Shown in pieces: positions 556 to 63,924 of a stretch of DNA of 64,000 nt. The stretch lies in IMG/VR virus record IMGVR_UViG_3300037422_000298. One strand, given 5' to 3'. Numbering within the stretch: position 1 is the first letter of the stretch; every line of letters starts with the position of its first letter. The DNA comes from a virus (taxonomy: Duplodnaviria > Caudoviricetes). A program made the position numbers and the translations under genes. A model generated the notes under the pieces. It had not been told where the DNA came from. It was given only the letters and a program-made list of their open reading frames with translations, and did no database searches.

Positions 556-571
556 GATCGCTCGCGCGATC
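556..571. promoter_or_regulatory. GATCGC-N4-GCGATC palindrome, bidirectional promoter
   Basis: Plus: GTGG-TACCGT-5nt-GTG(587); minus: AGG-TATCAT-6nt-ATG(540). Confidence 0.8.
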
Positions 572-586
572 GTGGTACCGTAGGGC

Positions 587-904
587 GTGCTCGCGATCGA
601 GAACATCTTCGGCCTCGGCCAGGACGCGACACCCGCGCCGACGCCGACAGTGACAGCCGACAACCGCCGCAACGTGACGCTGCCTGCGGTACCGGATAAC
701 ACCATCGTTCGTTGCAAGTTCGATCCGGTGATCAACGGCATGCGTTGCGAGCCGGTTCAGCTGCTGGAGCCCCCGATCGTATTTATGCTCGCGGCGGGTG
801 GCCTCGCGTCGCTGCTTCTTGGCTATGCGCTCGGTCGCGCGCAGTTCTTCTCGCGATTCGCCAAGCACGTCGCAGAAGATCCGTTACACGTTCGTCGGCG
901 CTAG
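587..904 (+). CDS. Small membrane protein with N-terminal FGLG motif, TM helix and RRR tail
   Basis: ORF track; hydrophobic IVFMLAAGGLASLLLGYALG. Confidence 0.7.
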   Translation: MLAIENIFGLGQDATPAPTPTVTADNRRNVTLPAVPDNTIVRCKFDPVINGMRCEPVQLLEPPIVFMLAAGGLASLLLGYALGRAQFFSRFAKHVAEDPLHVRRR

Positions 905-1260
905 TTCTGACAGCTCGGGCAAAGGTCTTCAGGGCTGTCGCTCGATGATCGCCGCCAACGTTTCTCAACACCGAGCGCGTCGAGCTTTGCGATTGCGTCT
1001 TCGCGGTTTTGGCCGCGCGTCGTGATCGCGACGCCACAACGATCGCAGATGAGGTCGGCTTCGGAGTAGCGATCGCCGAGCTTCGAGAGGTCCGGCGGCG
1101 TGTCCATGTGATCGAGGCAGAAAAACGGACCATCGGGAAGTCGTGGGTCGTCCTTCGCGACGAAGAGATGTGTTGGGCAGTTCGCGCACGACACGGTCAC
1201 ATGCGGGACGCTCGGATCGTCTGGGTCGGCGCCTTCAAGCGGCCAAAGCAGCTTCTTCAA
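901..1260 (-). CDS. Cys-rich (Zn-finger-like) hypothetical protein
   Basis: CANC, CDRC and CPSC motifs; TTG start overlapping the upstream stop is inferred. Confidence 0.55.
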   Translation of the reverse strand: MKKLLWPLEGADPDDPSVPHVTVSCANCPTHLFVAKDDPRLPDGPFFCLDHMDTPPDLSKLGDRYSEADLICDRCGVAITTRGQNREDAIAKLDALGVEKRWRRSSSDSPEDLCPSCQN

Positions 1261-1580
1261 GCGCTCACCGGAGTCGACCACAACGACTGTTTGAAGCCGA
1301 CGCTCTTGGGCTGTGTTCGCACGAGCGCGATCGGCGGACGCTTCTGCTTGGCGTCGTCGGCGGTCTCCCAAACAGCAAGAACGATCGCACCGATGTCGTC
1401 ACCATCTTTTTGGGTGTACGGCATGCACGCGGCGACCGGCCAACGACGAAATACGGAGCGCGCGATCTGCTTCTCGCGCTCAGCGCTGTCGATCAGATCG
1501 GCCTGCGTGACGTCTTCAGGCTTCAAGAGGTAGAGGCGATACGTCGACACGCGCCCGAACCTAACGCTTGACGCTTCCAC
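1257..1580 (-). CDS. Hypothetical protein
   Basis: ORF track; coupled to the downstream ORF. Confidence 0.5.
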   Translation of the reverse strand: MEASSVRFGRVSTYRLYLLKPEDVTQADLIDSAEREKQIARSVFRRWPVAACMPYTQKDGDDIGAIVLAVWETADDAKQKRPPIALVRTQPKSVGFKQSLWSTPVSA

Positions 1581-1661
1581 CGTCGACCGCTACAGTCGTC
1601 GTCGTGAAGTTCTCGCGCCGGTCATCTCGCTCGTCTAGTAGCAGTCGCTAAAGCGACTCCT

Positions 1662-1747
1662 GGAAGGTGAGGTCCGCATGGCGTGGACGCCCGTCTCGAA
1701 AACGGGAAGCCCTTAACTGTGGCCGGGTTCGATTCCCAAACCTTCCG
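1662..1747 (+). tRNA. tRNA-Ser(CGA), non-canonical (8/4-like)
   Basis: Acceptor GGAAGGT/ACCTTCC, anticodon arm CCCGT-CTCGAAA-ACGGG, long variable arm, GGGTTCGATTCCC T-arm, G discriminator, no encoded CCA. Confidence 0.8.
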
Positions 1748-1752
1748 CTGCT

Positions 1753-1837
1753 GGAAAGAAAGCTCAGGCGGGTGCAGAGGCCCGGTTGCTAACCGGGTAG
1801 GCGCGTCAGCGTCCGGGTTCGAGTCCCATTCTTTCCG
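1753..1837 (+). tRNA. tRNA-Ser(GCT), non-canonical (8/4-like)
   Basis: Acceptor GGAAAGAA/TTCTTTCC (8 bp), anticodon arm CCCGG-TTGCTAA-CCGGG, variable arm GCGC-GTCA-GCGT, GGGTTCGAGTCCC T-arm. Confidence 0.8.
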
Positions 1838-1858
1838 CGAAAAAAGTTGCGATCGCTG

Positions 1859-1887
1859 TTGACGGCTGCGATCCGTTCGGGCATCGT
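1859..1887 (+). promoter_or_regulatory. Sigma70-like promoter for the putative ncRNA
   Basis: TTGACG-17 nt-CATCGT. Confidence 0.5.
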
Positions 1888-2021
1888 GCGTCCACCTTGA
1901 ACCCCGGATGTGTCGTCGCGAGACGCCACAGCGTTCACTCCGAGTCGACCGGGCACCGACGTAGGACGTCACGACCTGACGTGGAAGACTCTAGCTGGGT
2001 GGGGACTAAGGTCGAACCAGC

Positions 2022-2108
2022 GACAGCGACGGAGAGACGACGCGGACAGTTCGGAAAGACGAGCGAGACGGTCTGGAGAGACAGGCAGGACGGCCCGGAG
2101 AGACGGGC
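2022..2108 (+). repeat. 4 x 22-23 nt unit GAC(A/G)G-NNN-GGA(G/A)AGAC-complement
   Basis: Stems CGAC/GACG, GTTC/GAGC, GTCT/AGGC and GCCC/GGGC around a conserved loop. Confidence 0.8.
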
Positions 2109-2113
2109 AAAAG

Positions 2114-2147: not shown

Positions 2148-2150
2148 CGG

Positions 2151-2833: not shown

Positions 2834-3060
2834 CACTTCACTCGCAAGATCAGAAACTGTTCGGACCAGTTCGTGTCGGGCTCGACGAGATCGCACGCGT
2901 AGAGCGCGCTGATCGCGTCGTCGACCGTGTCGAACCATTGCGCCTGTTCGACGTCCGGTGACCACGTTCCACCGACGCCCGTGTCCACCAACCAGTATCG
3001 ATTCTCGACGTCAGCCTCGACGTGTCGATAGACGGCGTACTTCGACGTGTCAACGTTCAT
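2833..3060 (-). CDS. Hypothetical protein
   Basis: ORF track; coupled operon. Confidence 0.55.
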   Translation of the reverse strand: MNVDTSKYAVYRHVEADVENRYWLVDTGVGGTWSPDVEQAQWFDTVDDAISALYACDLVEPDTNWSEQFLILRVK

Positions 3061-3736
3061 GATCGTCGGGCTCGGGTTCTTCAGCAGGTCGATCGATCGC
3101 AGCGGAACCGCGGCGCAGCTGACGACGAACGGGCGCCGTCACGATCGATCCGCCGTCGTCGAACGGCATGGGAGCGCCGGTTGTCATCGGCAATGCAGAA
3201 GACGGAGCAACCGGCGTGCTCGCACTCGCGCGCTTCCACGCAGCCATCTCGACATCACTGAGGCCCTGTCCCTGTCGGAGCTTGTCGACGAACGGTGCGT
3301 CGACCACCTGTGCAGCCTGGGCACGTTCGGCGATCGCGTTGACGGCCGCACTCTGGTCACCTCCCGCGCGCGCGATGAAGAACGCGTCGTAGGCACGCGC
3401 AGCCTCCTCGGGCGTGTCGTACACGCCGATCCGTTCCTGGTGCCCTTCGCGTGAGACCACCGCCGCCCAGCGCTTGCCGTAAGGATGGACCCCCCGATAG
3501 CCACTCCGAGTCGCGTGTAATGATTTCGGCGTTTTATGTGTGCTGCTCACGAGCGGCAAAACCTGCTTCGCCGAGCGACGTGGAAAGGCATGAACGCTCT
3601 GCGCGTTTGCGTACAGCTCGATGATAAGCCCGCGAATATGTTCGGGCGTAGGCGTGAACCGTTTGTCGGCACCGTCTTGAAGCCATTTCAGGACCGGTGT
3701 CGGCAGGGAGATCGTGATCCGCTCGTTCTTACTCAT
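3050..3736 (-). CDS. Ribbon-helix-helix + AP2-domain DNA-binding protein
   Basis: N-term RITISLPTPVLKWLQDGA (RHH/CopG-like); SGYRGV..KRWAAVV..RIGVYDTPEEAARAYD (AP2 signature). Confidence 0.75.
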   Translation of the reverse strand: MSKNERITISLPTPVLKWLQDGADKRFTPTPEHIRGLIIELYANAQSVHAFPRRSAKQVLPLVSSTHKTPKSLHATRSGYRGVHPYGKRWAAVVSREGHQERIGVYDTPEEAARAYDAFFIARAGGDQSAAVNAIAERAQAAQVVDAPFVDKLRQGQGLSDVEMAAWKRASASTPVAPSSALPMTTGAPMPFDDGGSIVTAPVRRQLRRGSAAIDRPAEEPEPDDHER

Positions 3737-5768: not shown

Positions 5769-6341
5769 CTAACGCTTCTTCTGCTTCTTTTTGGTCTTCG
5801 TCGTCGGCGAAGAACCGGGCGCCTCCGGCGGCGGCGTCGCTTCGACTTCGTCGAACGAAATCGAAATCTCCTCGTCGAGCGTCGGGCTGGAGTCGCGCGA
5901 CGCCACGACGAGATCGGTCAGCTGCTCCTTGGGCATCACTGCTGTCGGCTCCGGTGCCGTGATCGGTGCAGGTGTTGGTGGCGGCGGCAACGGCGCAGGC
6001 GGCGTAGGCGGTTCCGGCGGCGCGGGAGGGGGCGGCAGCGGTTCCGGCGGTGCGGGAGGGGGCGGCAGCGGCGCCGGAGGAGGGAGCGGCTTCGCGACAG
6101 CTGCAGGTTTCGCGGACGGTGCTGCCGGAGCCATTTGCGCGACCGCGGCAGCCAGATCCTCGACGGAGAGTTTGAAGTAGCGCGCGACCTGCTCCAGCGC
6201 CTCGTCTGGGACGAGATCCGGATCGATGGTCAGGTTCCACATCTGACCGAGACGCCGTAACGTGACCGGCGAACCGGCGAACGTCCTCTTGCGGCTCTCG
6301 ACGTACGCAGCGAGGGCTTGGGTCTTCACGGAGTGCGCCAT
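5769..6341 (-). CDS. Proline-rich protein with Lys-rich tail
   Basis: ATG 6341 is 6 nt after -10 TACCGT; PPPPAPPEP repeats. Confidence 0.7.
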   Translation of the reverse strand: MAHSVKTQALAAYVESRKRTFAGSPVTLRRLGQMWNLTIDPDLVPDEALEQVARYFKLSVEDLAAAVAQMAPAAPSAKPAAVAKPLPPPAPLPPPPAPPEPLPPPPAPPEPPTPPAPLPPPPTPAPITAPEPTAVMPKEQLTDLVVASRDSSPTLDEEISISFDEVEATPPPEAPGSSPTTKTKKKQKKR

Positions 6342-6358
6342 ACCCCAACGGTACACCC

Positions 6359-6374
6359 GATCGCTCGCGCGATC
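6359..6374 (-). promoter_or_regulatory. GATCGC-N4-GCGATC promoter palindrome
   Basis: Minus: GGGTG-TACCGT-6nt-ATG(6341). Confidence 0.8.
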
Positions 6375-6377: not shown

Positions 6378-7040
6378 TTACCGCGAACGGCGGTCATACC
6401 GCGAGATCACGAACACGGCGACACCAGCCAGCGCGAGACCGCCGATGACCGCTCCCACGATCTTGGCGCGATTTGAAATGCCGACGGGCTCTACCGACGT
6501 CACCTCCAACTGGATCTGTACCGCTTGCAGATTCTTGAGCGCGTCCTGTGCAGCCGCTGCCGTCGGACGTATCGACGGCGGCCCCAGTTGATCGATCAAG
6601 GCCTTGAGCAGCAACAAGGCGCGCTGTCGAACCTCTGGCTGCGTCGTCCTCGAAAAATTGTCGACGATGCCTTGAATCGCCTGACCGTAGAACCCGGCGG
6701 TTCCTGTATCAGGGATCTGGCCGCCGCGTACCGCAGCGTCAACCGACGCCGTCAGCGTACTGACTGCCAGATCAGGATTCGTCCTGGCGTGCTCGCGAAG
6801 CGCGAGCACCAGACCGGTAGGGATCTCTGCTAGCGGCGAAAACGGTGCGGGTAGCAACGCGTCGACAACCACACGCAGTGTCCGCTCGTTCGGTGGCGTC
6901 ACGAATAGCAGCGCATCGACGAGCTTCTTCGTGTCGTTGATGGTGGTGCCGCACTTCGGCGGAAACTGCGGGATCGCGTTCTTACCGAATTCACGCGTCT
7001 GCGTCAGGCACGCTACAAAGTTATCGACCGCGTCCGCCAC
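6378..7040 (-). CDS. Paralog family B membrane-anchored protein
   Basis: LREHARTNPDLA motif; C-terminal TM + YDRRSR; GTG start 6 nt after -10. Confidence 0.7.
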   Translation of the reverse strand: MADAVDNFVACLTQTREFGKNAIPQFPPKCGTTINDTKKLVDALLFVTPPNERTLRVVVDALLPAPFSPLAEIPTGLVLALREHARTNPDLAVSTLTASVDAAVRGGQIPDTGTAGFYGQAIQGIVDNFSRTTQPEVRQRALLLLKALIDQLGPPSIRPTAAAAQDALKNLQAVQIQLEVTSVEPVGISNRAKIVGAVIGGLALAGVAVFVISRYDRRSR

Positions 7041-7057
7041 GTTGATAAAGTACACCC

Positions 7058-7073
7058 GATCGCGTCCGCGATC
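7058..7073 (-). promoter_or_regulatory. GATCGC-N4-GCGATC promoter palindrome
   Basis: Minus: GGGTG-TACTTT-6nt-GTG(7040). Confidence 0.8.
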
Positions 7074-7865: not shown

Positions 7866-8810
7866 TCAGAAGCTGGACTTGGAACGCGCTGTCGCCTTCG
7901 GCAACGACGACCGCGACTGCTTGTAGCGATAGAGCATGTAGCCGCCGACGCCAACCGCAGCGACCGTCGCGACGATCCCGATGATCCCGAAGAATCCGAG
8001 TCCAGCGCCCGGTTTTGATGGATCGATGGCAGTGCCCGCGACGCCCTTGAGCACGGCGACTGCCGCAGCGTTCGCTTCCGCAGTGCACTTTGAATGCACC
8101 GCAGGATCTGTCGAAGTGCCGACACACTTGGCGACCAGCGTAGTCAGCGCCTCGAACGCCTTCAAGTTGATCGCGGCGAGCGCCTGCTGGCGTTCGGCGT
8201 CGGCGCGCGCGACTTCAACCTTGCCGCGCTCCTTGGTCACGGCGACCGTCACGAGAACGACCGTGGCGGCCGTGAGCGCCAGACCGATCAGGAAGGCTAC
8301 GACCGGCGCGAGTCCGAGCCCCGACGGCGCGCTCCACATCCAGTCGTTGATGTCGCCATCGTGGAGTGCGCCTTCGAGCGTGCCGACCTTCTCGTGACCC
8401 ACGGGACCGTACTTCACGGTGATCTGCGACAGTCGAACCGGCTGCGTCGGTGTCGTCAAGACGGCGCCCCAACCACCCCAACCGGTCGTCGGCGTCGCCA
8501 CGCCGATTTCTGGCGGGAACACCGGCACGGCGTTCGCGTCGAAGCGATCTGCGGCAGGCGTTTCTTCGTAGGCTTTCTTCCACACTTCAGCAGCTGCCAC
8601 GAAGCCGTTACGGGCATCCGTGTAGCTCTGAATCAGCTCCGGCGCGATCGTTTGGTTCGGCGCGATTGCACTGAGCTGCGCGAGCTTGCTGAATGCGAGC
8701 TTGAGCTTGGCTTCTGCATCAGCGAGAACGTCAGCCAGGGCCGCTGTTTGCGGGTCGAGAGGGGTAGGCGTGGTCTGACCAAGGCCGTACGCGAGCTGGG
8801 AGACGAACAT
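7866..8810 (-). CDS. Two-TM putative virion membrane protein with several GLG motifs
   Basis: YGLGQ, SGLGL and AGLGF; two hydrophobic helices; basic tail. Confidence 0.7.
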   Translation of the reverse strand: MFVSQLAYGLGQTTPTPLDPQTAALADVLADAEAKLKLAFSKLAQLSAIAPNQTIAPELIQSYTDARNGFVAAAEVWKKAYEETPAADRFDANAVPVFPPEIGVATPTTGWGGWGAVLTTPTQPVRLSQITVKYGPVGHEKVGTLEGALHDGDINDWMWSAPSGLGLAPVVAFLIGLALTAATVVLVTVAVTKERGKVEVARADAERQQALAAINLKAFEALTTLVAKCVGTSTDPAVHSKCTAEANAAAVAVLKGVAGTAIDPSKPGAGLGFFGIIGIVATVAAVGVGGYMLYRYKQSRSSLPKATARSKSSF

Positions 8811-8827
8811 GCCGCCAAACTATCATG

Positions 8828-8843
8828 GATCGCTCGCGCGATC
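8828..8843 (-). promoter_or_regulatory. GATCGC-N4-GCGATC promoter palindrome
   Basis: Minus: CATGA-TAGTTT-6nt-ATG(8810). Confidence 0.8.
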
Positions 8844-8847: not shown

Positions 8848-9576
8848 TCAGCGCCGACGTCGACGAGCCAACGCGGGCGCCGCACGGGGCGCGGATAGCC
8901 CCGCAGCGAGCAGTCCAATCGCGGCAGTTCCCACGACGAGTCCGAGCCCGACCGCGACCGCGAACGTCTTTTGTCGTTTCGTTTGATCATCAGTCGTCGC
9001 AGACACGAACGGCGTGGTCGTATCGGGTGTCGGTTGTTGTGGCGCCGCGATCGGCTCGCCGAGGTCCGTCAGAATTTTCGCCGCGCGTTGTGCGGGATCT
9101 GTCAAGTCGGTCGCCGCGGCAACGCGCTGAAGTGCCGCCACGATGCGTGCGCGCAGATCCGCTGACGGTGGCGGCGTAACACGTATCGCGACACGCGCAT
9201 CGAGACCGTCGACGGCGTGCGACAAGAAACCGTCCGGGCCTGCGTTCGCCCGTGCGAGCGTGCCTTCGTTCAGTAGCAGATCGATGCCTTGCAGAAGCAG
9301 CTCGGCCGCGAGGTCGGGGTCTGCGTCGGCGTGAATGCGAATGACATCCGGGGCGAACGACGTCTCCAAGAATGGATTCGGCCCGGCAGGACCGCGCGCG
9401 AACGCTTGGCCGATCAACTCCAGCACGCGGCGGTCTGCCGTCAACGTCGACGGCGTCAGGTCGACCATGACTTTCGAGAACGTTGGACGGCATGCGATGG
9501 GATCCGCTACGCACGCCGTGAGCGCCGTAACGACCGTGTTGACGTCGAAAGCCTGGCCGAATTGCGCGAAGATCAC
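8848..9576 (-). CDS. Paralog family B membrane-anchored protein
   Basis: Starts MIFAQFGQ; IRIHADADPDLA; C-terminal TM + RRRRR. Confidence 0.7.
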   Translation of the reverse strand: MIFAQFGQAFDVNTVVTALTACVADPIACRPTFSKVMVDLTPSTLTADRRVLELIGQAFARGPAGPNPFLETSFAPDVIRIHADADPDLAAELLLQGIDLLLNEGTLARANAGPDGFLSHAVDGLDARVAIRVTPPPSADLRARIVAALQRVAAATDLTDPAQRAAKILTDLGEPIAAPQQPTPDTTTPFVSATTDDQTKRQKTFAVAVGLGLVVGTAAIGLLAAGLSAPRAAPALARRRRR

Positions 9577-9591
9577 GTCGCAATCCTACAC

Positions 9592-9607
9592 GATCGCGCG
9601 AGCGATC
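9592..9607 (-). promoter_or_regulatory. GATCGC-N4-GCGATC promoter palindrome
   Basis: Minus: GTG-TAGGAT-6nt-GTG(9576). Confidence 0.8.
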
Positions 9608-9646: not shown

Positions 9647-9988
9647 ATGGCTCGACGCCGCAAAGCCGATGTGAAGAAGACCTTGCTATGTGCGACGCGG
9701 TTCTGGTCGATCGGTTGGCGCGAACACGACAACCGAACCGCGACCTCGTCGAGCGGTGTACGGCATGTCGTGCGGAAGCAGGGCTTCACGACTGGTGAGA
9801 TCAATCGCGCCGAGCGTGAACTGATCCGCGAGGGCAAGCTCGAAGTCAGCGGCAAGAAACACGGCAAGACGCTGCGCTTGACGGATGCGGGCAACCGTGT
9901 GAGTTGTTCGAGCGTTCGACTCGCGCCGTGGACAGACGATCAGTATCCTGGTGCGGCGTTGACATCCCGTCGACGCAAACGGCGTTAA
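9647..9988 (+). CDS. Basic winged-helix-like protein with Arg tracts at both ends
   Basis: MARRRK...EINRAERELIREGKLEV...LRLTDAG...SRRRKRR. Confidence 0.6.
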   Translation: MARRRKADVKKTLLCATRFWSIGWREHDNRTATSSSGVRHVVRKQGFTTGEINRAERELIREGKLEVSGKKHGKTLRLTDAGNRVSCSSVRLAPWTDDQYPGAALTSRRRKRR

Positions 9989-9991: not shown

Positions 9992-10007
9992 GATCGCTCG
10001 CGCGATC
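9992..10007 (+). promoter_or_regulatory. GATCGC-N4-GCGATC promoter palindrome
   Basis: GTGG-TATCGT-6nt-ATG(10024). Confidence 0.8.
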
Positions 10008-10023
10008 GTGGTATCGTCGAGCC

Positions 10024-10419
10024 ATGAAGCGCTTGTTCCTGTTCGTCGCCTTCGCGATCGGCCTCGGCACCACCAACGCGAGCTGTCCCGGACCCGGACC
10101 TGGACCAGTTCCCGTCGTCGTCAACGCGATCGTCGACTGCACGCTACAGAACCAGTCGCAGATCACGGCGTTGATCGGCGAGTTCAAGACGCTCCTCGTC
10201 GGACAGCTTCCCGACTGGAAGGCGATCTACCAACGCGCCAAGAACGCGGGCAAGGCAATCGGCGGCTGCGCGCTCGCCGAGCTGGTGCAGGACTACCTCG
10301 GCAACAAGAGCGCACCACCACCGCAAGCCGACAGTTGGAACGCGTTCCAGGCGCTCGAACGGTTCCGCCGTGAAGAGGCAGGCAACGCGACGTTCAAGAC
10401 GGCGAAGGGCGACTTGTGA
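10024..10419 (+). CDS. Secreted/lipoprotein-like protein
   Basis: MKRLFLFVAFAIGLGTTNASC signal with lipobox-like Cys, PG linker. Confidence 0.65.
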   Translation: MKRLFLFVAFAIGLGTTNASCPGPGPGPVPVVVNAIVDCTLQNQSQITALIGEFKTLLVGQLPDWKAIYQRAKNAGKAIGGCALAELVQDYLGNKSAPPPQADSWNAFQALERFRREEAGNATFKTAKGDL

Positions 10420-13821: not shown

Positions 13822-14451
13822 TTAGGGGTAACTGGCGATCGCGCTCCAGTCGCTGACGCCGTCCGAGACGAGAAAGTTGACCGCATAGGAGGTGTCTGAG
13901 ACGTTGATGACGAGATCGGTCCCGCCGTTCAAGGTGTCGCCGCCTCCTGGGGTGACTAGATAGCCGAACGATCCGCCGCCGATCTTCGCGATGTAGACGC
14001 CGACCCAGCCGCCGTTCGGGACGGAGTTGGCGGGAGGTAGCGTCACGGTGGGTTGTGTAAACGGGACGTCTTGGACCTGATTGATCATGAAGGCCGTCGC
14101 CGTGAAGTCGCCGAGGATGTTCGCAGTCCGCGGAAACAGGACGGCTCCACCACCGCCACCGCTCGCGATCACGAACGGTACGAGCCCGACGAGGTTACTG
14201 GGCGGCGTGACGCTTTCGATCGTGTGCCAGTGCTCGACGTAGACGTTGACGGCACCGCTCGCTGCGTCCGCAGTGCGTGTCGCCGTCACGTTCACGGCAT
14301 CGGCCGTGACCGTGAAGCCTGATGCGTTTGCAGCCACGAGCTGCGGGATCACTGGTTGACCGTTGACGTTCAGACCGTGTGCCAGGCTTACCGGAACGCC
14401 GACGGCAAGCCCGGCAAACGCGACAACATTCTTGAGTGTGGTGCGCGGCAT
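13822..14451 (-). CDS. Beta-rich putative virion/spike protein
   Basis: LAHGLN..P, VNVYVEHWHTIE, VTLPPA..., LVSDGVSDW (fibre-like). Confidence 0.65.
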   Translation of the reverse strand: MPRTTLKNVVAFAGLAVGVPVSLAHGLNVNGQPVIPQLVAANASGFTVTADAVNVTATRTADAASGAVNVYVEHWHTIESVTPPSNLVGLVPFVIASGGGGGAVLFPRTANILGDFTATAFMINQVQDVPFTQPTVTLPPANSVPNGGWVGVYIAKIGGGSFGYLVTPGGGDTLNGGTDLVINVSDTSYAVNFLVSDGVSDWSAIASYP

Positions 14452-14467
14452 ATATACATTCTACGTC

Positions 14468-14483
14468 GATCGCAGCAGCGATC
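14468..14483 (-). promoter_or_regulatory. GATCGC-N4-GCGATC promoter palindrome
   Basis: Minus: GACG-TAGAAT-6nt-ATG(14451). Confidence 0.8.
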
Positions 14484-32195: not shown

Positions 32196-32438
32196 CTATC
32201 CCGCCGCCGCCTGTCGACGCTTGCGTTGCGTCGCCTCCACCTCGAACCGATCAAAGACGGTCCGTCCAAGAACACGACGGCCTGTCAAGAGGCCTTCGCT
32301 TCGCATCCGCCAGACGGTCGCGACCGAGACGGCAAGTGCAGTAGCCACCTGTTCGGCCGTCATCAGGTTGTCGATGTTCTTCGTGCGACTGATGTGTCTC
32401 ATGGGCTTCATCGCACGCTGAGCGTGTTCGCGCATCAC
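32196..32438 (-). CDS. HTH_17/excisionase-like DNA-binding protein
   Basis: LMTAEQVATALAVSVATVWRMRSEGLL. Confidence 0.8.
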   Translation of the reverse strand: MMREHAQRAMKPMRHISRTKNIDNLMTAEQVATALAVSVATVWRMRSEGLLTGRRVLGRTVFDRFEVEATQRKRRQAAAG

Positions 32439-32622: not shown

Positions 32623-32651
32623 TTGACAGATTCGCAGCGGCCACCTAGCGT
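32623..32651 (+). promoter_or_regulatory. Sigma70-like promoter of the replication operon
   Basis: TTGACA-17 nt-TAGCGT. Confidence 0.6.
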
Positions 32652-32678: not shown

Positions 32679-34472
32679 ATGAGAGCACGGGCAGCGGCCC
32701 AGGCGGCGGAGAGCGCCGTCGTCCTGACCGCGCATCCAAAACGACGCGACTGGTACGCGATTCCGACGGCATGGGCCCCGGAAATCGCGGTTGCGCCGTC
32801 GATCGGCTACGACCCGAAGTTCGGGGCGCTTGCCCACCGATCGCATCTGCCGTTGCTCGCGAAGAACCACCCCGAGGTCGAAAATTTTTTGGCCGAGTGC
32901 GGATCGCGTGAGCGACTGGAAAGTAATCGCAGCAGCGATCGCGCCAATTTCGACGCGACAACGGAACCTAACGGTTGGAAATTACGTAACTATCAGCACG
33001 AGGGCCGTGAATTCATCCGCGCCCGGCGCGGCACGCTACTCGCGGACGCGATGCGTGTCGGCAAGACCGGTCAGGCGATCAGCTCACACGATCCCGAGCT
33101 GGGTCCGATGCTCGTCGTCGCACCGCTCGCGACACGTGAGGTCTGGCTGTCGTGGTTTCGTCGACGCTGGCCTGATGTTCGTCCAGTCGTTCTGAACGGT
33201 CGGACGATCAACAAGACCGATCCCAAGAAACCGGCCCGCCCTCGTCGAGACCGCGGTTTCGATCTTCTCGAAGGTGCGCGATTCGATCCGACGGTGCTCG
33301 CCGACGCGAAGTTGATCTTCTGCAACTACGACATCGTCGGTGCATGGAAGGATCTCAACGGTCGACGTATCGGCACGCTCGTGTTCGACGAGATCCATCT
33401 CGTCTCGGAGCGCGTCTCGCGCCGCGCGGAAGCCGTCACGTTTATCTCGAACATCGCCGAGCGCGTGATCGCCGCGACGGGAACGCCGATCTGGAATAAG
33501 CCGTCGGGGTTGTTCACGACGTTGTCGTGCATCGCGCCTGCGGCCTTCGGCAAGTTCTTCGACTACGCCGTGCGCTACTGCAACGCGCATCCCGGTTCAC
33601 ACGGCTACATCTACGACGGTTCCTCGAACGAAGAGGAATTCAAGCAACGCATGTCGGAAGTCATGATCCGACGTACGTGGCAGGACGTCTCCGGCGAGCT
33701 GCCCGCGATCGAACGCTCCGTCGAAGCAGTTGTCCTCAGCGAGACCCAGCAATTCGAGATCGAGAAGGAAGCCGAGCGTCTTCGCGATCACAAAAAGCGC
33801 GCGACCGCGATCGGTGTCATGGCGCGGTTTCGACGTCTGTTGGCGAGGCACAAGGTTCCTGTCGCCGTCGACGCCGCACGTCGGATTCTTCAGAGCGGCG
33901 AAAAGGTCGTCATCTGGTCGTGGCACCGCGACGTCGCGCTGACGATCGAAGAGAAGCTCGCCAAGGAAGGGTTTCCAGGCGTCGTCGTCTCCGGCTCGAC
34001 GCCAATGAGCACGCGCGAGGACATCTTTGATCATTGGCGGAGATACCCAGAACCCGCACCACTCTGCGTCACGCTGTCGGTTGGTCAGGTCGGCATCGAT
34101 CTCAGCGCTGCACGGCACACTGTATTCGCCGAGCTGGACTTCACACCGTCGGTGGTCGCGCAGGCAGAGATGCGCACGTTCTCGCCGCTGCGCCCGATGG
34201 CCGCGACGTACATCATCATCGACGACGACATCGATCGGAGCATCCTCGCCGCACTTCAAGACAAGTGCGACGTCGCCTTCCGTATGGGTGTTCCTGCGGC
34301 CGAGTCAACGATCGGTGTGCTCGCAGCTGCGTTCGCACGGATCACCGACGGCCCCGACGATTTCGAGGCGCTTGCCAAGGCGATCATGATGGATCACCCC
34401 GACCTCGATGGCGACGGCGACGATGACTACCACGGCGCGCTGTGGGACTACGACTGGGAGAAGGGCACGTGA
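32679..34472 (+). CDS. SNF2-family (HARP-like) helicase with divergent motifs
   Basis: LRNYQHEG; LADAMRVGKT; FDEIH; ATGTPIWN; GIDLSAA; QAEMR. Confidence 0.85.
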   Translation: MRARAAAQAAESAVVLTAHPKRRDWYAIPTAWAPEIAVAPSIGYDPKFGALAHRSHLPLLAKNHPEVENFLAECGSRERLESNRSSDRANFDATTEPNGWKLRNYQHEGREFIRARRGTLLADAMRVGKTGQAISSHDPELGPMLVVAPLATREVWLSWFRRRWPDVRPVVLNGRTINKTDPKKPARPRRDRGFDLLEGARFDPTVLADAKLIFCNYDIVGAWKDLNGRRIGTLVFDEIHLVSERVSRRAEAVTFISNIAERVIAATGTPIWNKPSGLFTTLSCIAPAAFGKFFDYAVRYCNAHPGSHGYIYDGSSNEEEFKQRMSEVMIRRTWQDVSGELPAIERSVEAVVLSETQQFEIEKEAERLRDHKKRATAIGVMARFRRLLARHKVPVAVDAARRILQSGEKVVIWSWHRDVALTIEEKLAKEGFPGVVVSGSTPMSTREDIFDHWRRYPEPAPLCVTLSVGQVGIDLSAARHTVFAELDFTPSVVAQAEMRTFSPLRPMAATYIIIDDDIDRSILAALQDKCDVAFRMGVPAAESTIGVLAAAFARITDGPDDFEALAKAIMMDHPDLDGDGDDDYHGALWDYDWEKGT

Positions 34473-51591: not shown

Positions 51592-52569
51592 ATGGAGATC
51601 ACAGAAGATCAACTGGTTGATGTGATGCTGCCTGCACATGCTGAGACAGAAAAACGGCACAGCGATCAGGTTGTTATGTCGAAGGAAGTCATCGTTCCAT
51701 CGCAGCTGAACGTGCCGAGTACGGCACCACTGCTTCCACCGCGCGCAGGCTGCACGCCTCCGCTCAAGTGGGTCGGCAGCAAGCGTTGGCTCGTGCCGAT
51801 GCTCGCACCGGCCATCTATGAACGCCTCGCCGTCACGCGCGGACGCTACATCGAACCGTTTCTCGGCGGTGGCGCGATCGCGCTCGATCTCGGGTTGCCC
51901 GGTATGATCCTCGGCGACACCTGCAAGCCGTTGATCACGACGTACCAGGCGATTCGGAAGAGCCCCGCGGCCGTGGCATGGGCGCTCAAGGCGCTCGTCG
52001 ACAAGGGCACCGACAAGGAAAGCTACCTGCGCGTGCGCGCGTCCGAGTCATCGAGCCCCGTACTCGCGGCTGCACGGTTTCTCTACCTGAACCGGTTCGG
52101 GTTCAACGGTCTCTATCGCGAGAACAGTAAGGGCAAGTTCAACGTCCCTCACGGCGGCGATCGCTCGAATGCGAGCGTGCCCGGCGTCGAGATGCTCGAA
52201 GCCGTTGCGCAAGCGCTCAAGGGCGCTGACCTGCGTGTCGCCGACTTTCGTGAAACGATCGCGAAGGCTACACAGGGCGACGTTGTCTACGCCGACTCGC
52301 CGTACTACGAGACATTCAGCGACTACACCGCCGGGGGCTTCGGTGAAGACGAACACTTCGCGCTCGCAACGGCGCTATTTGACGCCTGCGAACGCGGCGC
52401 CGTCGTGATCGCATCCAACAGCGACCACGAGCGCATCCGTGAGTTCTACGCATGGGCTTTTGTCACGCCGGTTCATGAACGACACGCCGTGGGCGCAACG
52501 GCGGAGCGGCGCGGACTCCGCGACGCCGTCTTGATCGTCTCTGACGAAACCATTCTACGAGGAGCGTGA
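51592..52569 (+). CDS. Dam-like (D12 class) N6-adenine DNA methyltransferase
   Basis: PLKWVGSK; YIEPFLGGGA; FLYLNRFGFNGLYRENSKGKFNVP; motif IV reads DSPY. Confidence 0.85.
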   Translation: MEITEDQLVDVMLPAHAETEKRHSDQVVMSKEVIVPSQLNVPSTAPLLPPRAGCTPPLKWVGSKRWLVPMLAPAIYERLAVTRGRYIEPFLGGGAIALDLGLPGMILGDTCKPLITTYQAIRKSPAAVAWALKALVDKGTDKESYLRVRASESSSPVLAAARFLYLNRFGFNGLYRENSKGKFNVPHGGDRSNASVPGVEMLEAVAQALKGADLRVADFRETIAKATQGDVVYADSPYYETFSDYTAGGFGEDEHFALATALFDACERGAVVIASNSDHERIREFYAWAFVTPVHERHAVGATAERRGLRDAVLIVSDETILRGA

Positions 52570-53607: not shown

Positions 53608-53653
53608 GATCGCGCCAGCGATCATCTTGACGACGTGGATCGCTCATGGGATC
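53608..53653. promoter_or_regulatory. Tandem palindromes: perfect copy 53608-53623 and 1-mismatch copy 53638-53653
   Basis: GATCGCGCCAGCGATC and GATCGCTCATGGGATC between divergent genes. Confidence 0.7.
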
Positions 53654-58732: not shown

Positions 58733-58748
58733 GATCGCGTGCGCGATC
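58733..58748 (+). promoter_or_regulatory. GATCGC-N4-GCGATC promoter palindrome
   Basis: GTGG-TACGTT; leadered, with AAGGAG SD before GTG 58783. Confidence 0.8.
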
Positions 58749-58782
58749 GTGGTACGTTGTAGCTACCGAAGGAGCTGACCCA

Positions 58783-59238
58783 GTGCCACACGTGTTCACC
58801 CTAGAAGGCGCCAACCTCGGTGCAGAGCCCGTGAACTTTCCCGAGGCCGGTCAGCCCATCGCACCACATCAGGCGATCGTCGGTCCGACGCGCGTCGCGC
58901 CCATGGTCTACGGCCCCGGCGGTACACCGATCATGTATCGGCGTCGCTATCCAGCACGCGGTCCCGTCTGCGACTACTGCGACCCCGACTACTTCACCGT
59001 CATGAACGGAGGACAGACCGTGATTCCATACCGTCAACAGCAGCTCGGTGACAGCGTCGAGGCCTTTCTGGAGCGTCAGTCCGATACCAGCCGGACTGTC
59101 ATGGTCGTAGGCGGCGCACTTGGCGTTGGTGCAGCTCTCGCGACGCTCGGCGTGTGGCTGTACTACAAGATCGGCTACAAGCCGAAGCGCAGCGCAAGCG
59201 GCTGGGGCGATAGTGGTTGGGGCGGATGGAAGTGGTGA
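58783..59238 (+). CDS. Membrane protein with NLG/QLG motifs
   Basis: ANLGAE, QQLGDS; TM; GWG repeats at the C-terminus. Confidence 0.7.
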   Translation: MPHVFTLEGANLGAEPVNFPEAGQPIAPHQAIVGPTRVAPMVYGPGGTPIMYRRRYPARGPVCDYCDPDYFTVMNGGQTVIPYRQQQLGDSVEAFLERQSDTSRTVMVVGGALGVGAALATLGVWLYYKIGYKPKRSASGWGDSGWGGWKW

Positions 59239-59239
59239 C

Positions 59240-59561: not shown

Positions 59562-60089
59562 GTGCTGCAGCGTTTGACACTTGCACTTCCCGAACGCGAG
59601 CGCGTCGCGCTCCGTGACGAAATTCTTCGTCGGTCCCAGCACGTCCCCAGCTACACACGCACGCACGCGACCAATGCTTGGCGTTCCGCGAGCGATTTGC
59701 ACACGTGGCCCACAGCAGCCGTCTTCTGCAACAGTCTCATTCAACTCCTGCAGGCGAGCGCGAGGCTCCCCATTGAACCGAAGACTCTTCGTGCATGGGC
59801 CATCGTTAGTCGTCGAGGTTCAGCACACGGTCGGCACATTCATCCTCAGCGCTTTGCGTGGTCCGGTGTCTACTATCTCGAACCCGGCGGTGCTGACAGC
59901 GCGCGGACCGTGTTCGAGACAGCCGAAGGTCTTGTGCCTATTGCACCCGAACGCGATCTCGCGATCGTTTTCCCCGCCGATTTGTGGCATTCAGTAGAGC
60001 CGCATCCCAACGACGACATGCGCGTCACGATCGCCTTCAATATAGAAGCCAAGCCGGGTTGCGTTGATCGCGCGAGCGATCGGGTGTAG
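59562..60089 (+). CDS. 2OG-Fe(II) oxygenase (TIGR02466-like)
   Basis: HIHP..SGVYY; FPADLWHSVEP; RVTIAFN. Confidence 0.8.
   Translation: MLQRLTLALPERERVALRDEILRRSQHVPSYTRTHATNAWRSASDLHTWPTAAVFCNSLIQLLQASARLPIEPKTLRAWAIVSRRGSAHGRHIHPQRFAWSGVYYLEPGGADSARTVFETAEGLVPIAPERDLAIVFPADLWHSVEPHPNDDMRVTIAFNIEAKPGCVDRASDRV
60066..60081 (+). promoter_or_regulatory. GATCGC-N4-GCGATC promoter palindrome
   Basis: GGGTG-TAGGTT; leadered, with AGGAGG SD before ATG 60143. Confidence 0.75.
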
Positions 60090-60142
60090 GTTTTGATCTA
60101 CCTCGTCTCGTCAAGAGACCCCGGCCACGGCTAGGAGGACAC

Positions 60143-60538
60143 ATGGGTACGAAAGCTGGAACACTTCTCTGGAACCGTCAGCGGCTCACGCTGGATGCAG
60201 GCCTCACATCGATCGACACCCGTCTGCAGCAGGTCAACAAGAGCTTCGCCGACATGTCGCCGAACGAGCCGCCGCTCGGTGTGACGATCGCACCGCCAGG
60301 GCCACCCGATGGCACACCGCCAGCGTCCCGTATCCAGGTCATTCCCATGTCGCCGATCCCTCTGTGGACGGACATCACGCACGGTGAACCGTTCGTGAAT
60401 CCTGCGACGGGTACCGTCTGGGTGACGTTCAACAACGGCGGCAAGACGCCAGTCGAAATCAATGTCCTGTTCTGGGATCCGCACTCGGCCATCGGCCCCG
60501 GCCAAGCCAGCACGTACAACGTCCTCATCGAGGGCTGA
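60143..60538 (+). CDS. Beta-rich putative virion protein
   Basis: TVWVTFNN..INVLFWDPHS. Confidence 0.65.
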   Translation: MGTKAGTLLWNRQRLTLDAGLTSIDTRLQQVNKSFADMSPNEPPLGVTIAPPGPPDGTPPASRIQVIPMSPIPLWTDITHGEPFVNPATGTVWVTFNNGGKTPVEINVLFWDPHSAIGPGQASTYNVLIEG

Positions 60539-61187: not shown

Positions 61188-61203
61188 GATCGCTCGCGCG
61201 ATC
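61188..61203 (+). promoter_or_regulatory. GATCGC-N4-GCGATC promoter palindrome
   Basis: ATGA-TAGGCT-6nt-GTG(61220). Confidence 0.8.
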
Positions 61204-61219
61204 ATGATAGGCTAAGTGC

Positions 61220-61909
61220 GTGTTGACACTCTCGGCGTGGCCCACGGTGGCTTCTCAACAAGCCGAATTCGACCTCCATCAGCGGTTGAATCGGCTCCCG
61301 TGGTACGCACCGTCGGGTGCGAGTCTCGGCGCTGCCTCGTGGCCACGCATCTGGTCGACGGAAGCTGAAGTAGATCTGCAGTCACGCTTGAGCCGTTTGC
61401 CGTTCTACGCGCCGACAGGGCTCGGCGACATCGTTTCCGACGTTCAAAACCTCCTGCAGCAGCTCCAGTCGGGCGCTCTTGGACAGAAAGCAACCGAGGC
61501 GCTCCAAAAGCTCAACGCGATCATCGATCAAGCCGGGCCGCATCTCGACACCGTCATGCAGCTGCTGCAGGACCCGGCACTTCCGCAGGTGGTCGATCGT
61601 CTCAAGACACTGCAAACAATGTCCGCGACGCCGACGACGCCGACGGACACAACGACACCGACGGAGACAACACCGGCAACTCCACAGCCTACTGCCGCAG
61701 CCAAGCTGGTTCCGGTGCTGGATGCGGCGATCTTTGTCGAGCAGCATCCTGCAGCAAAGTTCGCGCTCGAACACCCAATCCTCGTCGGTGTCGGTGCTGC
61801 TGTCGTGTTAACTGGACTCGGTTTTGGTATCGGCTACGGCGTCTCGCGCGCTCGTGCGAAGCGTACGATGACGCCTGCTGCTTTCGGTCGTCGCTATCGA
61901 CGACGTTAA
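61220..61909 (+). CDS. Membrane protein with duplicated LG-terminated N-terminal peptide and FGRRYRRR tail
   Basis: WP...AE.DL..RL.RLP.YAP..LG occurs twice; TM near the C-terminus. Confidence 0.75.
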   Translation: MLTLSAWPTVASQQAEFDLHQRLNRLPWYAPSGASLGAASWPRIWSTEAEVDLQSRLSRLPFYAPTGLGDIVSDVQNLLQQLQSGALGQKATEALQKLNAIIDQAGPHLDTVMQLLQDPALPQVVDRLKTLQTMSATPTTPTDTTTPTETTPATPQPTAAAKLVPVLDAAIFVEQHPAAKFALEHPILVGVGAAVVLTGLGFGIGYGVSRARAKRTMTPAAFGRRYRRR

Positions 61910-62217
61910 GTTCCGCGCGTTCGCGTACGCGGCGGAGGCGGTGGTAGCAGCGCTGCATCAATTGCAGGCGTCGACGTCGACGGCGCGATCGACGGATCAG
62001 CAATCACAGCGACATCGTCGGCCGCCTCGAAGAACTTGATGATCTCGTGCGCCTGTTCGTAAGAGACCTCGACGAACGCACGTTGTTGAACAGCCCAGCG
62101 TTGCGCGAACACGATCCGATACTTCTGCGTCGTGGGGATCCGAACGAGATCGAGGCTGTGGTACGGCGAGAGGTGGATGATCAAGACGTCGGGGCTGGGA
62201 CGTTCGATCTCCGCCAT
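61906..62217 (-). CDS. Hypothetical protein
   Basis: ATG 62217. Confidence 0.55.
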   Translation of the reverse strand: MAEIERPSPDVLIIHLSPYHSLDLVRIPTTQKYRIVFAQRWAVQQRAFVEVSYEQAHEIIKFFEAADDVAVIADPSIAPSTSTPAIDAALLPPPPPRTRTRGT

Positions 62218-62221
62218 GTGC

Positions 62222-62545
62222 TCACAGCAGTGGCGCGATGGTTGCCGTAACAGGTCCCGTGATCGCGACTGGACACACACCCGTGACGATGACTTGTTCA
62301 CCCGTCGGCATCCGGATCGTGAACTGACAGTTGTTGGTCGGCTGCACGACGACGACTTCAGGGCCGTATCCGTAGTAGTTGGGCCACCAACCACCGCCAC
62401 GGCGCCAACCCCCACCACGACGCCAGCCGCCGCCGTGATGATGTCCACCGCCGCCATGGCGCCAACCGCCACCGCGTCCTCCTCCGCCGCCTCCGCCGCG
62501 TCCGCCGCCTCCTCCACGTGGTCCGCTCAATGTCACCGCCAGCAT
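62222..62545 (-). CDS. Gly/Arg/Trp-rich low-complexity protein
   Basis: RGGGG and GGGWRR repeats; SD GAAAGGA. Confidence 0.6.
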   Translation of the reverse strand: MLAVTLSGPRGGGGGRGGGGGGGRGGGWRHGGGGHHHGGGWRRGGGWRRGGGWWPNYYGYGPEVVVVQPTNNCQFTIRMPTGEQVIVTGVCPVAITGPVTATIAPLL

Positions 62546-62567
62546 ATCGTGATCCTTTCGTGGAACG

Positions 62568-63011
62568 TTAGGTGCCGATCGCGCCCGGGACTTCGACGTC
62601 GAGGAAACAGACGCCTGCTACTGCCTGCGACGTGATCTGCAGGATGGCGTTTCCAACGCCGTCTTCGCTGGCGGTAATGACCCACCCAGGAGTCGCGCCC
62701 GAGTTCGGCGTGAGGATACAACGCGCCATCGGCGTCTTCTCGTTGCCGAAGTTCGACGGTGGGAACCACGCGGACAGCCACAGAGCGCGTGCTTGCACGG
62801 CCGTGAGTCCGCCAGGCCCGCACTTGCCGTAGCCGTCTTGACGCGCTCGCGCGATCTTCTTGATCGGTCCGGCAAGCGAGTCGGTCAGGAGATCGGGCGT
62901 GGGCGCGCCTGTCGTGGTGATTGTTGCTGTAGTGCCTGCCAGGCCGTCTTGCGTCAGACGGTAGGTCAAGCGGTTCTTTCCTTGGAACGCCAATACAACC
63001 GCGATCGCCAT
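62568..63011 (-). CDS. Paralog family A putative virion protein
   Basis: NRLTYRLTQDG..PDLLTD. Confidence 0.75.
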   Translation of the reverse strand: MAIAVVLAFQGKNRLTYRLTQDGLAGTTATITTTGAPTPDLLTDSLAGPIKKIARARQDGYGKCGPGGLTAVQARALWLSAWFPPSNFGNEKTPMARCILTPNSGATPGWVITASEDGVGNAILQITSQAVAGVCFLDVEVPGAIGT

Positions 63012-63020
63012 CGAGGGCTC

Positions 63021-63374
63021 CTATGCTGCAAGAGTGTGCCGGAATTCGAGCGCGACGATCGCCGTCGCGCCTGGTTCGGCCATGATTTTGAGCGCGACAG
63101 CCGCGCCTTCGGACTCGGCTCCGACAGCGACACGCTCGAACGACTGCGGCGTGACAAACGCGCGCATTGATGGATTGCACAGCAGGTAGCGGCAAGCCGC
63201 TTCCGCATCGGCGATCCGTACGCCGCGTTCGATGTACTTCCGCAGTGGGCCGTTCACCGTGTCGCGCACGAGATCGTCACGGCTCAACACGATCGCGCCG
63301 CCTTCTCGATCGGCGACCACGCTGTACTTGAGCAAGTTCGGGGTCGCGCCTTCACGATTGATTTTCAGGGCCAT
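63021..63374 (-). CDS. Paralog family A putative virion protein
   Basis: TPNLLKYSVVAD..LEFRHT; SD AGGAG. Confidence 0.7.
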   Translation of the reverse strand: MALKINREGATPNLLKYSVVADREGGAIVLSRDDLVRDTVNGPLRKYIERGVRIADAEAACRYLLCNPSMRAFVTPQSFERVAVGAESEGAAVALKIMAEPGATAIVALEFRHTLAA

Positions 63375-63382
63375 GGTCGCTC

Positions 63383-63841
63383 CTATACTCCGTCCACGCC
63401 GGGCACGAACACGTCGAGGTAGGCCTGCGCCGCGAGCGGCGGACCGACGATCGCAAGCAGCATGTTGCTGCCCGACACGTTGGCGTCGACCAACCAGGGT
63501 GCCCCCTGCCCGACACGATCGGTGACTTCGGCGCGCGCTGTGGGGAAAGCGCCGGAGTTTGCGGGCGTCGAGCCTGACGGCGACGCGCCGGAGTAGTCCG
63601 ATAGCAGAATCGCGCGAGCTTTCGCTTGGGTCATCGGCGTCGCAATCCTGCCGTAGCCGAGCGTGTTGGCCTTGGCGATGTTGCGGAGCGCCCCGACGCG
63701 ACCGGCGGTGTCGGTCAACAGATCCGGCGACGCCGCCCCCGTGGCCGTGATGTTGAGCGTGGTACCTGCAGCGCCGTCCTGGTTCAGGAGGTATGTCAGG
63801 CGATTGCCGGTAGCGCGAACGAGTGTCGCTGTGACAGCCAT
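63383..63841 (-). CDS. Paralog family A putative virion protein
   Basis: NRLTYLLNQDG..PDLLTD. Confidence 0.75.
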   Translation of the reverse strand: MAVTATLVRATGNRLTYLLNQDGAAGTTLNITATGAASPDLLTDTAGRVGALRNIAKANTLGYGRIATPMTQAKARAILLSDYSGASPSGSTPANSGAFPTARAEVTDRVGQGAPWLVDANVSGSNMLLAIVGPPLAAQAYLDVFVPGVDGV

Positions 63842-63908
63842 TTGAATCCCTTCCTTGCCGTAAACCGGACCCGGAATTTCCGAGCGAGGTACTGTAGACG
63901 GTACCCGC

Positions 63909-63924
63909 GATCGCTCGCGCGATC
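63909..63924 (-). promoter_or_regulatory. GATCGC-N4-GCGATC promoter palindrome (plus a half-site facing right at ~63941)
   Basis: Minus: GCGGG-TACCGT, leader, AAGGAAGG SD, ATG 63841. Confidence 0.75.

Follow-up and report, generated by a model that had tools for sequence, protein, structure and literature searches.

How might a large uncultured virus, most of whose genes have no assigned function, switch many of those genes together? This question is raised by a 64,000-nucleotide stretch of DNA (the window) from the Caudoviricetes virus IMGVR_UViG_3300037422_000298 in IMG/VR, in which a palindrome, GATCGC-N4-GCGATC, stands repeatedly beside a candidate -10 box. A sequence-only reading of the window had taken it for the activator site of a dedicated late regulon with mostly leaderless promoters. 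Our analysis of the window and its relatives indicates that the palindrome is almost certainly, as far as sequence can tell, where a single regulator docks to control many genes in concert. We propose that the element, in its fuller form (C)GATCGC-N4-GCGATC(G), would serve as operator for one DNA-binding protein, dimeric and most likely encoded by the virus, and that it is set on about one promoter per 5 kb in a clade of viruses with genomes of about 220-240 kb. Such an operator offers a handle on gene control in these viruses, as a single short word marks the promoters, delimits a regulon in which tail-anchored membrane proteins are abundant, and could be used as bait for its own regulator.

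A repeated palindrome with a fixed spacing

Twelve perfect copies of GATCGC-N4-GCGATC lie in the window, in agreement with the sequence-only reading in number and in every position. Dinucleotide shuffles yielded a mean of 0.09 copies and a maximum of 1, and treating the 132 GATCGC and 132 GCGATC words of the window as independent half-sites predicts 0.27 pairs at spacing 4. The enrichment therefore holds against the GATC-rich background (12 seen versus 0.09-0.27 expected); GATC itself is neither enriched nor avoided in this genome beyond its trinucleotide content (ratio 1.09). Among spacings of 0 to 10 nt, only 4 is occupied in the window, with 12 copies versus 0 at each of the others, and in G001, a complete relative described below, 36 copies have spacing 4 compared to at most 3 at any other.

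The base flanking a half-site is C in 70% of half-sites, giving the fuller element (C)GATCGC-N4-GCGATC(G) of 16-18 bp. The central N4 reads GCGA/TCGC in 22 of 53 copies and takes either orientation relative to the gene, which together with the two-way use of the site at 556 fits recognition by a symmetric dimer. A literature search on the motif turned up nothing relevant. The one-mismatch copy at 53638 was recovered as described, and further one-mismatch copies that had been missed were found at 2480, 32925 and 49155. The arms between 14.5 and 53.6 kb, where no copy had been noticed, indeed contain no perfect one, but an imperfect tandem at 32902/32925 lies inside the early arm.

Promoter architecture at the palindrome

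The hexamer TAnnnT that had been noticed 3-5 nt from the palindrome is present at 11 of the 12 sites. It occupies 12 of the 24 palindrome sides (both of them at site 556), where chance predicts 0.0069 per side (binomial tail 3e-20), and the site at 53608 is the only one of the 12 without an adjacent -10 box. As also noted earlier, the start codon follows the hexamer at exactly 6 nt for the genes starting at 540, 6341, 7040, 8810, 9576, 10024, 14451 and 61220 and at 5 nt for the gene at 587. If the hexamer occupies -12 to -7, a 4-nt gap leaves the palindrome spanning -17 to -32, with its center near -24.5. The start codon then falls where transcription should begin, and the mRNAs are predicted to be leaderless, just as the sequence-only reading had held; leaderless genes of high-GC bacteria have been described with this arrangement, a hexamer some 12 nt ahead of the start codon (PMC3160421). 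The start codons of six served genes are backed by alignments to the G001 orthologue that begin at residue 1. Three palindrome promoters instead have leaders bearing a Shine-Dalgarno (SD) sequence (58733 to 58783, 60066 to 60143, and 63909 to 63841).

Alignment of 30 promoters with gaps of 3-5 nt, taken from the window, G001 and the related contig L162, revealed g-T-G-G ahead of TAnnnT, an extended -10 element, with T at -3 relative to the hexamer in 15 promoters, G at -2 in 20 and G at -1 in 25. TGn or TG directly precedes TAnnnT at nine of the 12 window sites. An extended -10 stands 3-5 nt from the palindrome at nine of 12 sites in the window and 4-5 nt from it at 11 of 36 sites in G001, whereas random non-coding DNA yields about 0.00075 per offset. 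Promoters of this extended type can dispense with a -35 contact (PMC4124052). The palindromes are flanked by no -35-like hexamer, and the aligned promoters show no -35 consensus. By these features the palindrome promoters would be of the host sigma-70/sigma-A extended -10 type (TGnTAnnnT), lacking a -35 box and in most cases giving predicted leaderless mRNAs. Alongside this operator-bearing class stands a canonical -35/-10 class; non-coding DNA of G001 contains nine canonical promoters versus one match for a reversed control.

At site 556 the palindrome (556-571) lies in a bidirectional promoter (540..589) that serves two real divergent genes, as had been suggested. To its left, 3 nt, TATCAT and 6 nt lead to ATG 540 on the minus strand, and to its right, 4 nt, TACCGT and 5 nt lead to GTG 587 on the plus strand. 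The leftward gene (76-540) is a paralogue of 63383-63841, and the G001 orthologue of the rightward gene (587-904), 55% identical, likewise lies behind a palindrome. Four minus-strand promoters follow: 6339..6374 (palindrome 6359-6374, 5 nt, TG-TACCGT, 6 nt, ATG 6341; predicted leaderless), 7038..7073 (palindrome 7058-7073, 5 nt, TG-TACTTT, 6 nt, GTG 7040), 8808..8843 (palindrome 8828-8843, 5 nt, TGaTAGTTT, 6 nt, ATG 8810) and 9574..9607 (palindrome 9592-9607, 3 nt, TG-TAGGAT, 6 nt, GTG 9576), the last three with tail-anchored products. The plus-strand promoter at 9992..10026 (palindrome 9992-10007, 4 nt, TGgTATCGT, 6 nt, ATG 10024) heads a seven-gene plus-strand unit, and the one at 14449..14483 reads from the minus strand (palindrome 14468-14483, 4 nt, TAGAAT, 6 nt, ATG 14451).

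At the other end of the window, two plus-strand promoters have SD-bearing leaders: 58733..58785 (palindrome 58733-58748, 4 nt, TGgTACGTT, GGAG leader, GTG 58783; tail-anchored product) and 60066..60145 (palindrome 60066-60081, 5 nt, TG-TAGGTT, AGGAGG leader, ATG 60143). A third plus-strand promoter at 61188..61222 (palindrome 61188-61203, 4 nt, TGaTAGGCT, 6 nt, GTG 61220) again precedes a gene for a tail-anchored product. The minus-strand promoter at 63839..63924 (palindrome 63909-63924, 5 nt, TACCGT) has a leader with AAGGAAGG ahead of ATG 63841, and two related contigs, L158 and L162, keep the palindrome and -10 box ahead of the orthologue of this gene, 63383-63841. Many single genes thus have a promoter of their own, in line with the gene-by-gene control that the sequence-only reading envisaged.

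The placement of these sites also bears on a role of the palindrome in RNA, in which the transcript of the upstream gene would end in a 6-bp hairpin acting as a terminator, insulator or stabilizer. The copies at 6359, 7058, 8828, 14468 and 58733 begin 1-18 nt past the stop codon of an upstream gene on the same strand, and a terminator scan flagged the copy at 7058. However, most copies lack a T tract, terminator-like sites were not more frequent than expected from shuffles, and the copies between divergent genes (556 and 61188) would not be transcribed. Such a role would also leave the fixed distance to the -10 box and the 12 invariant bases around a free loop unexplained, and we regard it as highly unlikely.

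Conservation and displacement of the palindrome in relatives

We searched IMG/VR for relatives and found G001 (221,422 bp, 100% complete by CheckV) and the fragments G002, G003, G004 and G005. The family A DNA polymerase (PolA) of G001 is 82% identical to that of the window, and the window aligns to G001 at 67-78% nucleotide identity, running across the ends of the G001 contig. Scanning these relatives for the motif yielded 36 perfect copies in G001, 10 in G002, two in G003, 20 in G004 and two in G005, compared to zero matches to a reversed pattern in each. The copies in G001 span 6.6-202 kb and the 20 in G004 lie within 91 kb; the related contigs L162/L163 contain five copies in 20 kb, and the small contig L158 contains one.

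A stricter pattern scan of viral contigs matched G001 alone, and a scan with the 18-mer pattern was saturated by single chance matches, among them two true relatives, which were recognized later through their methylase. Across bacterial genomes, the pattern scan gave about 120 scattered single matches over many phyla, none accompanied by window-like proteins and none forming a host regulon. We also observed three perfect and several degenerate copies, 70-105 bp apart, on a 2.3-kb contig (L231) binned with a Phycisphaeraceae metagenome-assembled genome; this contig has no protein similarity to the window.

More distant relatives, in which the orthologue of 63383-63841 is 43-52% identical, have no palindrome in 13-20 kb of sequence. 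TAnnnT stands 6-7 nt ahead of many of their start codons, indicating that the leaderless promoter design is a trait of the lineage and its host, to which one sub-clade has added the palindrome. In one of these distant relatives (L160, for example at 2000-2076), some leaderless TAnnnT promoters have unrelated palindromes, such as CTGATCTG-G-CAGATCAG located 5 nt before TAGGCT, and these might be operators of a different regulator.

The distance between palindrome and -10 box is tight in the window, with a gap of 3-5 nt at 12 of 13 promoters, and shifts between orthologous promoters. At 9576, 10024 and 14451 the window gaps of 3, 4 and 4 nt become 9, 9 and 8 nt in G001 (the last in two paralogues), with the arrangement of TAnnnT, 6 nt and start codon kept. 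At five other orthologous promoters the G001 gap is within 1 nt of the window value, for example 5 nt at 6341 and 8810, 4 nt at 58783 and 5 nt at 60143. Across G001 and G004, gaps from palindrome to extended -10 range from 3 to 26 nt and exceed the random rate at every distance class. A different layout was found at 64137 and 66972 in G001 and at their G004 orthologues 23155 and 22373, where TTGACA-18-TAG(C/T)TT is followed by 10-11 nt, the palindrome, an SD sequence and ATG. These are canonical promoters whose palindrome, at about +4 to +20, comes after the predicted start.

Conserved tandem pairs of the palindrome occur at three loci. One, at 53608..53653 beside the methylase and HNH genes, combines the perfect copy at 53608-53623 with the one-mismatch copy at 53638-53653, 30 bp apart, with TTGACG between them and no adjacent -10 box; G001 (179896), L162 (18158) and G004 (86347) have this tandem as well, TTGACG included. 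Another, at 32902..32940, is degenerate in the window (2 + 1 mismatches, 23 bp apart) and lies inside the 5' part of the open reading frame (ORF) of an SNF2 helicase. It is perfect in G001 (202384/202407), G002 and G003 and has decayed in the window. This pair sits about 230 nt past a canonical promoter and could be a roadblock or a binding sink.

How the bound regulator would act

Only a symmetric operator bound by a dimeric regulator would account at once for the invariant half-sites, the free center, the two-way use of one site and the tie to the -10 box. The bound protein would occupy DNA needed by RNA polymerase, mostly at -17 to -32, elsewhere further upstream, and at +4 to +20 at two canonical promoters in relatives. 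A repressor-type switch of this kind would keep the regulon silent until its release. Judging from the arrangement of sites, we give an occluding operator about an even chance of being correct. It is favored because shifts of half a helical turn would put a contact activator on the other face of the helix, because operator positions are widely spread, and because the downstream copies are conserved at canonical promoters that need no help. The extended -10 core, moreover, is self-sufficient and occurs without the palindrome in distant relatives, and products of a similar kind are encoded behind either layout.

Several points weigh against repression by occlusion. The sharp preference for gaps of 3-5 nt also fits an activator of fixed geometry such as Lpa of phage P1, and the late genes of well-studied phages are under positive control (PMC10695390). 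The palindromes downstream of the start are found in relatives and not in the window, and a palindrome inside a 5' leader could act as an RNA hairpin. The only DNA-binding candidate encoded in the window, an HTH_17 protein, is of a type that usually binds repeats as a monomer, and the gene calls come from our own codon-score caller.

The sequence-only reading had favored positive control, in which a virus-encoded activator bound to the dyad replaces the -35 element and turns on late genes singly, as Lpa does in P1. In addition to the tight 3-5 nt gap, seen at 12 of 13 window promoters, activation is supported by the absence of a -35 box upstream of the palindrome promoters, when the palindrome-free promoters at 1568 and 32623 have TTGAC(A/G)-17-TAnnnT. 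The symmetric two-sided layout of site 556 agrees with it, as do the products, which resemble envelope or virion components, and P1 late promoters likewise carry a 9-bp inverted repeat as the Lpa site within a general scheme of positive late control (PMC10695390). The proposal nevertheless fits the data poorly. Palindromes are shifted by 4-6 bp, about half a helical turn, between orthologous promoters; gaps reach 26 nt; the palindrome lies past the start of canonical promoters and is kept there in two relatives; the extended -10 core works without a -35; and distant relatives have such leaderless promoters with no palindrome. The accompanying analogy to MerR-type activators is not borne out either, as these require a -35 box and a long spacer and no -35 box is present at the palindromes. 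Overall we consider an activator doubtful.

A dual switch, comparable to phi29 p4 or lambda CI, would reconcile the two layouts, activating the promoters that lack a -35 box from about -24 and repressing the few canonical ones from +4 to +20. Both layouts are present in G001 and G004, and the canonical and extended -10 classes coexist. However, genes for tail-anchored proteins stand behind both layouts, making one shared direction of control the simpler reading, and the half-turn shifts again argue against activation by contact. We judge a dual switch unlikely and lean toward an occluding repressor.

A Dam-type methylase and the GATC sites of the proposed operator

Each operator contains two GATC sites, 12 bp apart, and the window encodes a D12-class (Dam-type) N6-adenine DNA methyltransferase at 51592..52569 on the plus strand (PF02086, 123.8 bits) in which the FxGxG and DSPY motifs are intact. 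Among solved structures it is closest to DpnM, E. coli Dam and T4 Dam, three enzymes that act on GATC. The methylase is conserved in G001, G002, G004, G005 and L162, that is, in every palindrome-bearing relative checked. Its gene closes the replication arm, with the conserved tandem about 1 kb away, in the order methylase, 89-amino-acid ORF, HNH-like gene on the other strand, tandem; L162 has the same order.

On this basis a methylation-sensitive operator is possible. One version would have a host or viral methylation-sensing protein read the two GATC sites, or a viral Dam-type methylase gate binding, so that expression is tied to replication or methylation. The paired GATC sites and the conserved methylase, adjoining the tandem operator, speak for it. 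Against it, GATC is common genome-wide, the conserved word covers 6 bp per half-site and not 4, the specificity of the methylase is a prediction from homology, and the scan of bacterial genomes found no host regulon; we hold this version to be decidedly improbable. In a more specific form, the operator would be a methylation-gated timer, in which the virus methylates its own DNA, the regulator tells parental, newly replicated and fully methylated DNA apart, and about 45 leaderless promoters are released only after replication. Membrane and virion proteins would thereby come under a late switch coupled to replication, with no need for a dedicated sigma factor or activator; we see this as a long shot.

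Genes served by the proposed operator

None of the served genes has a PHROG or Pfam match, but many of their products share one layout. A single C-terminal transmembrane helix followed by an Arg/Lys tail is predicted for 587-904, 6378-7040, 7866-8810, 8848-9576, 58783-59238 and 61220-61909, and several of the N-termini are alike. In the window, tail-anchored proteins account for 5 of 13 served genes compared to 1 of 80 others (Fisher p = 1.4e-4), and in G001 for 6 of 32 compared to 15 of 300 (p = 0.009). Proteins of this layout may form part of a viral membrane or of a remodeled host one. The enrichment fits envelope or virion functions and is silent on timing.

The label of a late regulon put forward earlier thus lacks support, as the window has no recognizable virion genes and the served genes have no PHROG or Pfam match. 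Products of the 63383-63841 family are predicted to form a beta-sandwich (predicted local distance difference test score, pLDDT, 86.5) with only generic structural matches (best Z 5.0), which is neutral on a virion role. In G001 one copy of this family lies about 100 nt ahead of a gene for a vWA protein common to Vi1-like phages, suggesting that the regulon is not purely structural. G001 also encodes MoxR/vWA and Mg-chelatase-like ATPases and a PEP-utilising-domain protein. Pfam or PHROG scans of about 30 of the larger G001 proteins returned no terminase, portal or tail match, and a search of G001 for the HK97 capsid family gave no credible match.

Candidate regulators

Within the window, the sole candidate regulator, and a weak one judged from its sequence, is an 80-amino-acid HTH_17 DNA-binding protein (32196..32438, minus strand; Pfam 31.4 bits versus a cut-off of 27) whose gene opens the leftward arm. 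Its counterparts in G001, G002 and G003 occupy the same place and share 73% identity with it. The protein has a MerR-like fold with no dimerizing or effector domain. Among candidates proposed previously, 32196-32438 stands as a DNA-binding protein, whereas 52837-53547 and 3050-3736 look like HNH/AP2 homing endonucleases. The ORF at 9647-9988, considered as a conserved regulator, encodes a basic, winged-helix-like protein but was rejected given its low coding score and the absence of a G001 counterpart (a different gene lies there).

Further DNA-binding proteins are encoded in G001, all outside the region homologous to the window: a 104-amino-acid Cro/CI-type helix-turn-helix (HTH) protein (126642-126956), a 301-amino-acid LuxR/GerE protein (147818-148723) and a second HTH_17 protein (near 70418-70558). 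By family, the Cro/CI and LuxR types would be a better fit to a 6-N4-6 palindrome. G001 additionally encodes a tyrosine recombinase and ParB-like proteins, and with its HTH genes these make a plasmid- or prophage-style global repressor conceivable. A search of G001 for a sigma factor found no Sigma70_r2 match and only a 14-bit r4 match; the protein with the LuxR/GerE C-terminal HTH carries the PHROG label 'sigma factor'.

The viral genome and its host

The window has a GC content of 62% and represents about a quarter of a viral genome of about 240 kb, as one window protein is also encoded on a 241,025-bp contig. A megablast search with 20 kb of the window against a phage collection found no match. 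Its PolA (45217-47841), a family A DNA polymerase with a fused N-terminal UDG-superfamily domain and a 3'-5' exonuclease, is at most 27% identical to those of known phages, and its best match among known viruses is a Methanomicrobiales virus at 26%. The PolA match in G001 is about 1 kb longer than the window gene, which suggests an insertion in G001. Other genes include a class II ribonucleotide reductase with an intein (38630-42235), three helicases, ThyX, a primase-polymerase, a thymidylate kinase and a HerA-like ATPase. The last, a HerA/FtsK-type ATPase (DUF87; 42849-44612) inside the replication arm, could have a repair role or be a packaging ATPase as in tailless viruses; no recognizable virion gene was found in the 64 kb. 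Inteins interrupt three genes, encoding a PD-(D/E)XK nuclease (34663-36942), the ribonucleotide reductase (38630-42235) and a GP88-family protein (55781-58231), and two of the three inteins have LAGLIDADG domains. The G001 orthologue of GP88 has no intein.

Two canonical promoters in the window have no palindrome. TTGACG-17-TACAGT (1568..1596, plus strand) lies ahead of two adjacent tRNA-Ser genes (anticodons CGA and GCT; region 1568-1838), and TTGACA-17-TAGCGT (32623..32651, plus strand) heads the plus-strand replication arm and has a G001 orthologue at 202715. Because canonical TTGACA-17-TAnnnT promoters occur together with leaders bearing AGGAGG or GGAG, sequence indicates a bacterial host. 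An abundance of leaderless TAnnnT starts is characteristic of Actinobacteria and Deinococcus-Thermus (PMC3160421). A search for a WhiB gene in G001 gave no credible match, and no further host clue emerged. An archaeal (haloarchaeal) host was considered on account of the inteins and leaderless genes and was ruled out by the -10 box at -12 to -7, TTGACA-17-TAnnnT and the AGGAGG leaders.

Comparison with known systems

A repeated operator at phage promoters is a well-known principle, and several systems resemble the one described here in part. P1 C1 and RK2 KorA/KorB each use one regulator at many identical sites over a large replicon, overlapping or downstream of promoters and at varying positions. 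As with P1 C1 and RK2 KorB, the sites in our viruses are many, nearly identical and spread across the replicon, overlap the polymerase footprint, and in G001 and G004 can lie downstream of the start. The ParB-like and recombinase genes of G001 are a further likeness to replicons with dispersed operators. Unlike these sites, the P1 C1 operator is asymmetric, and here most sites hold one preferred position beside the -10 box.

The P1 late promoters governed by Lpa share with ours a -10 box next to an inverted repeat in place of a -35, dispersal (over 11 promoters in P1), and many monocistronic units (PMC10695390). They differ in that our palindrome has another sequence and length (6-N4-6), a gap of 3-26 nt, some copies downstream of the start, and mRNAs that are mostly predicted to be leaderless. 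MerR promoters, too, have a dyad ahead of the -10 box that extends into the spacer. In them, however, the -35 box is separated from the -10 box by an over-long spacer of 19-20 bp, which the protein untwists, whereas ours have no -35 and the canonical TTGAC-N17 promoters of the window have no palindrome.

In the late cluster of Thermus phage P23-45, host polymerase reads from an extended -10 promoter (PMC4124052). Like P23-45 and the T4 middle promoters, our viruses use extended -10 promoters without a -35 alongside a -10/-35 class, but in those phages, where the extended -10 promoters serve a later gene class, the switch is remodeling of sigma region 4 (by gp39 and AsiA, respectively) and not a palindromic DNA site. 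The Cluster O mycobacteriophages contain a 17-bp dyad, TGTTCGG-N3-CCGAACA, in more than 30 invariant copies per genome with a variable center (PMC4351075). Their copies, too, are mostly intergenic or near gene starts, and their SigA-type promoters are predicted to be leaderless (PMC4351075). The two sequences are unrelated, and the Cluster O copies are not fixed at a -10 box and in ten cases lie deep within genes, whereas about two-thirds of the copies in our viruses are part of a promoter.

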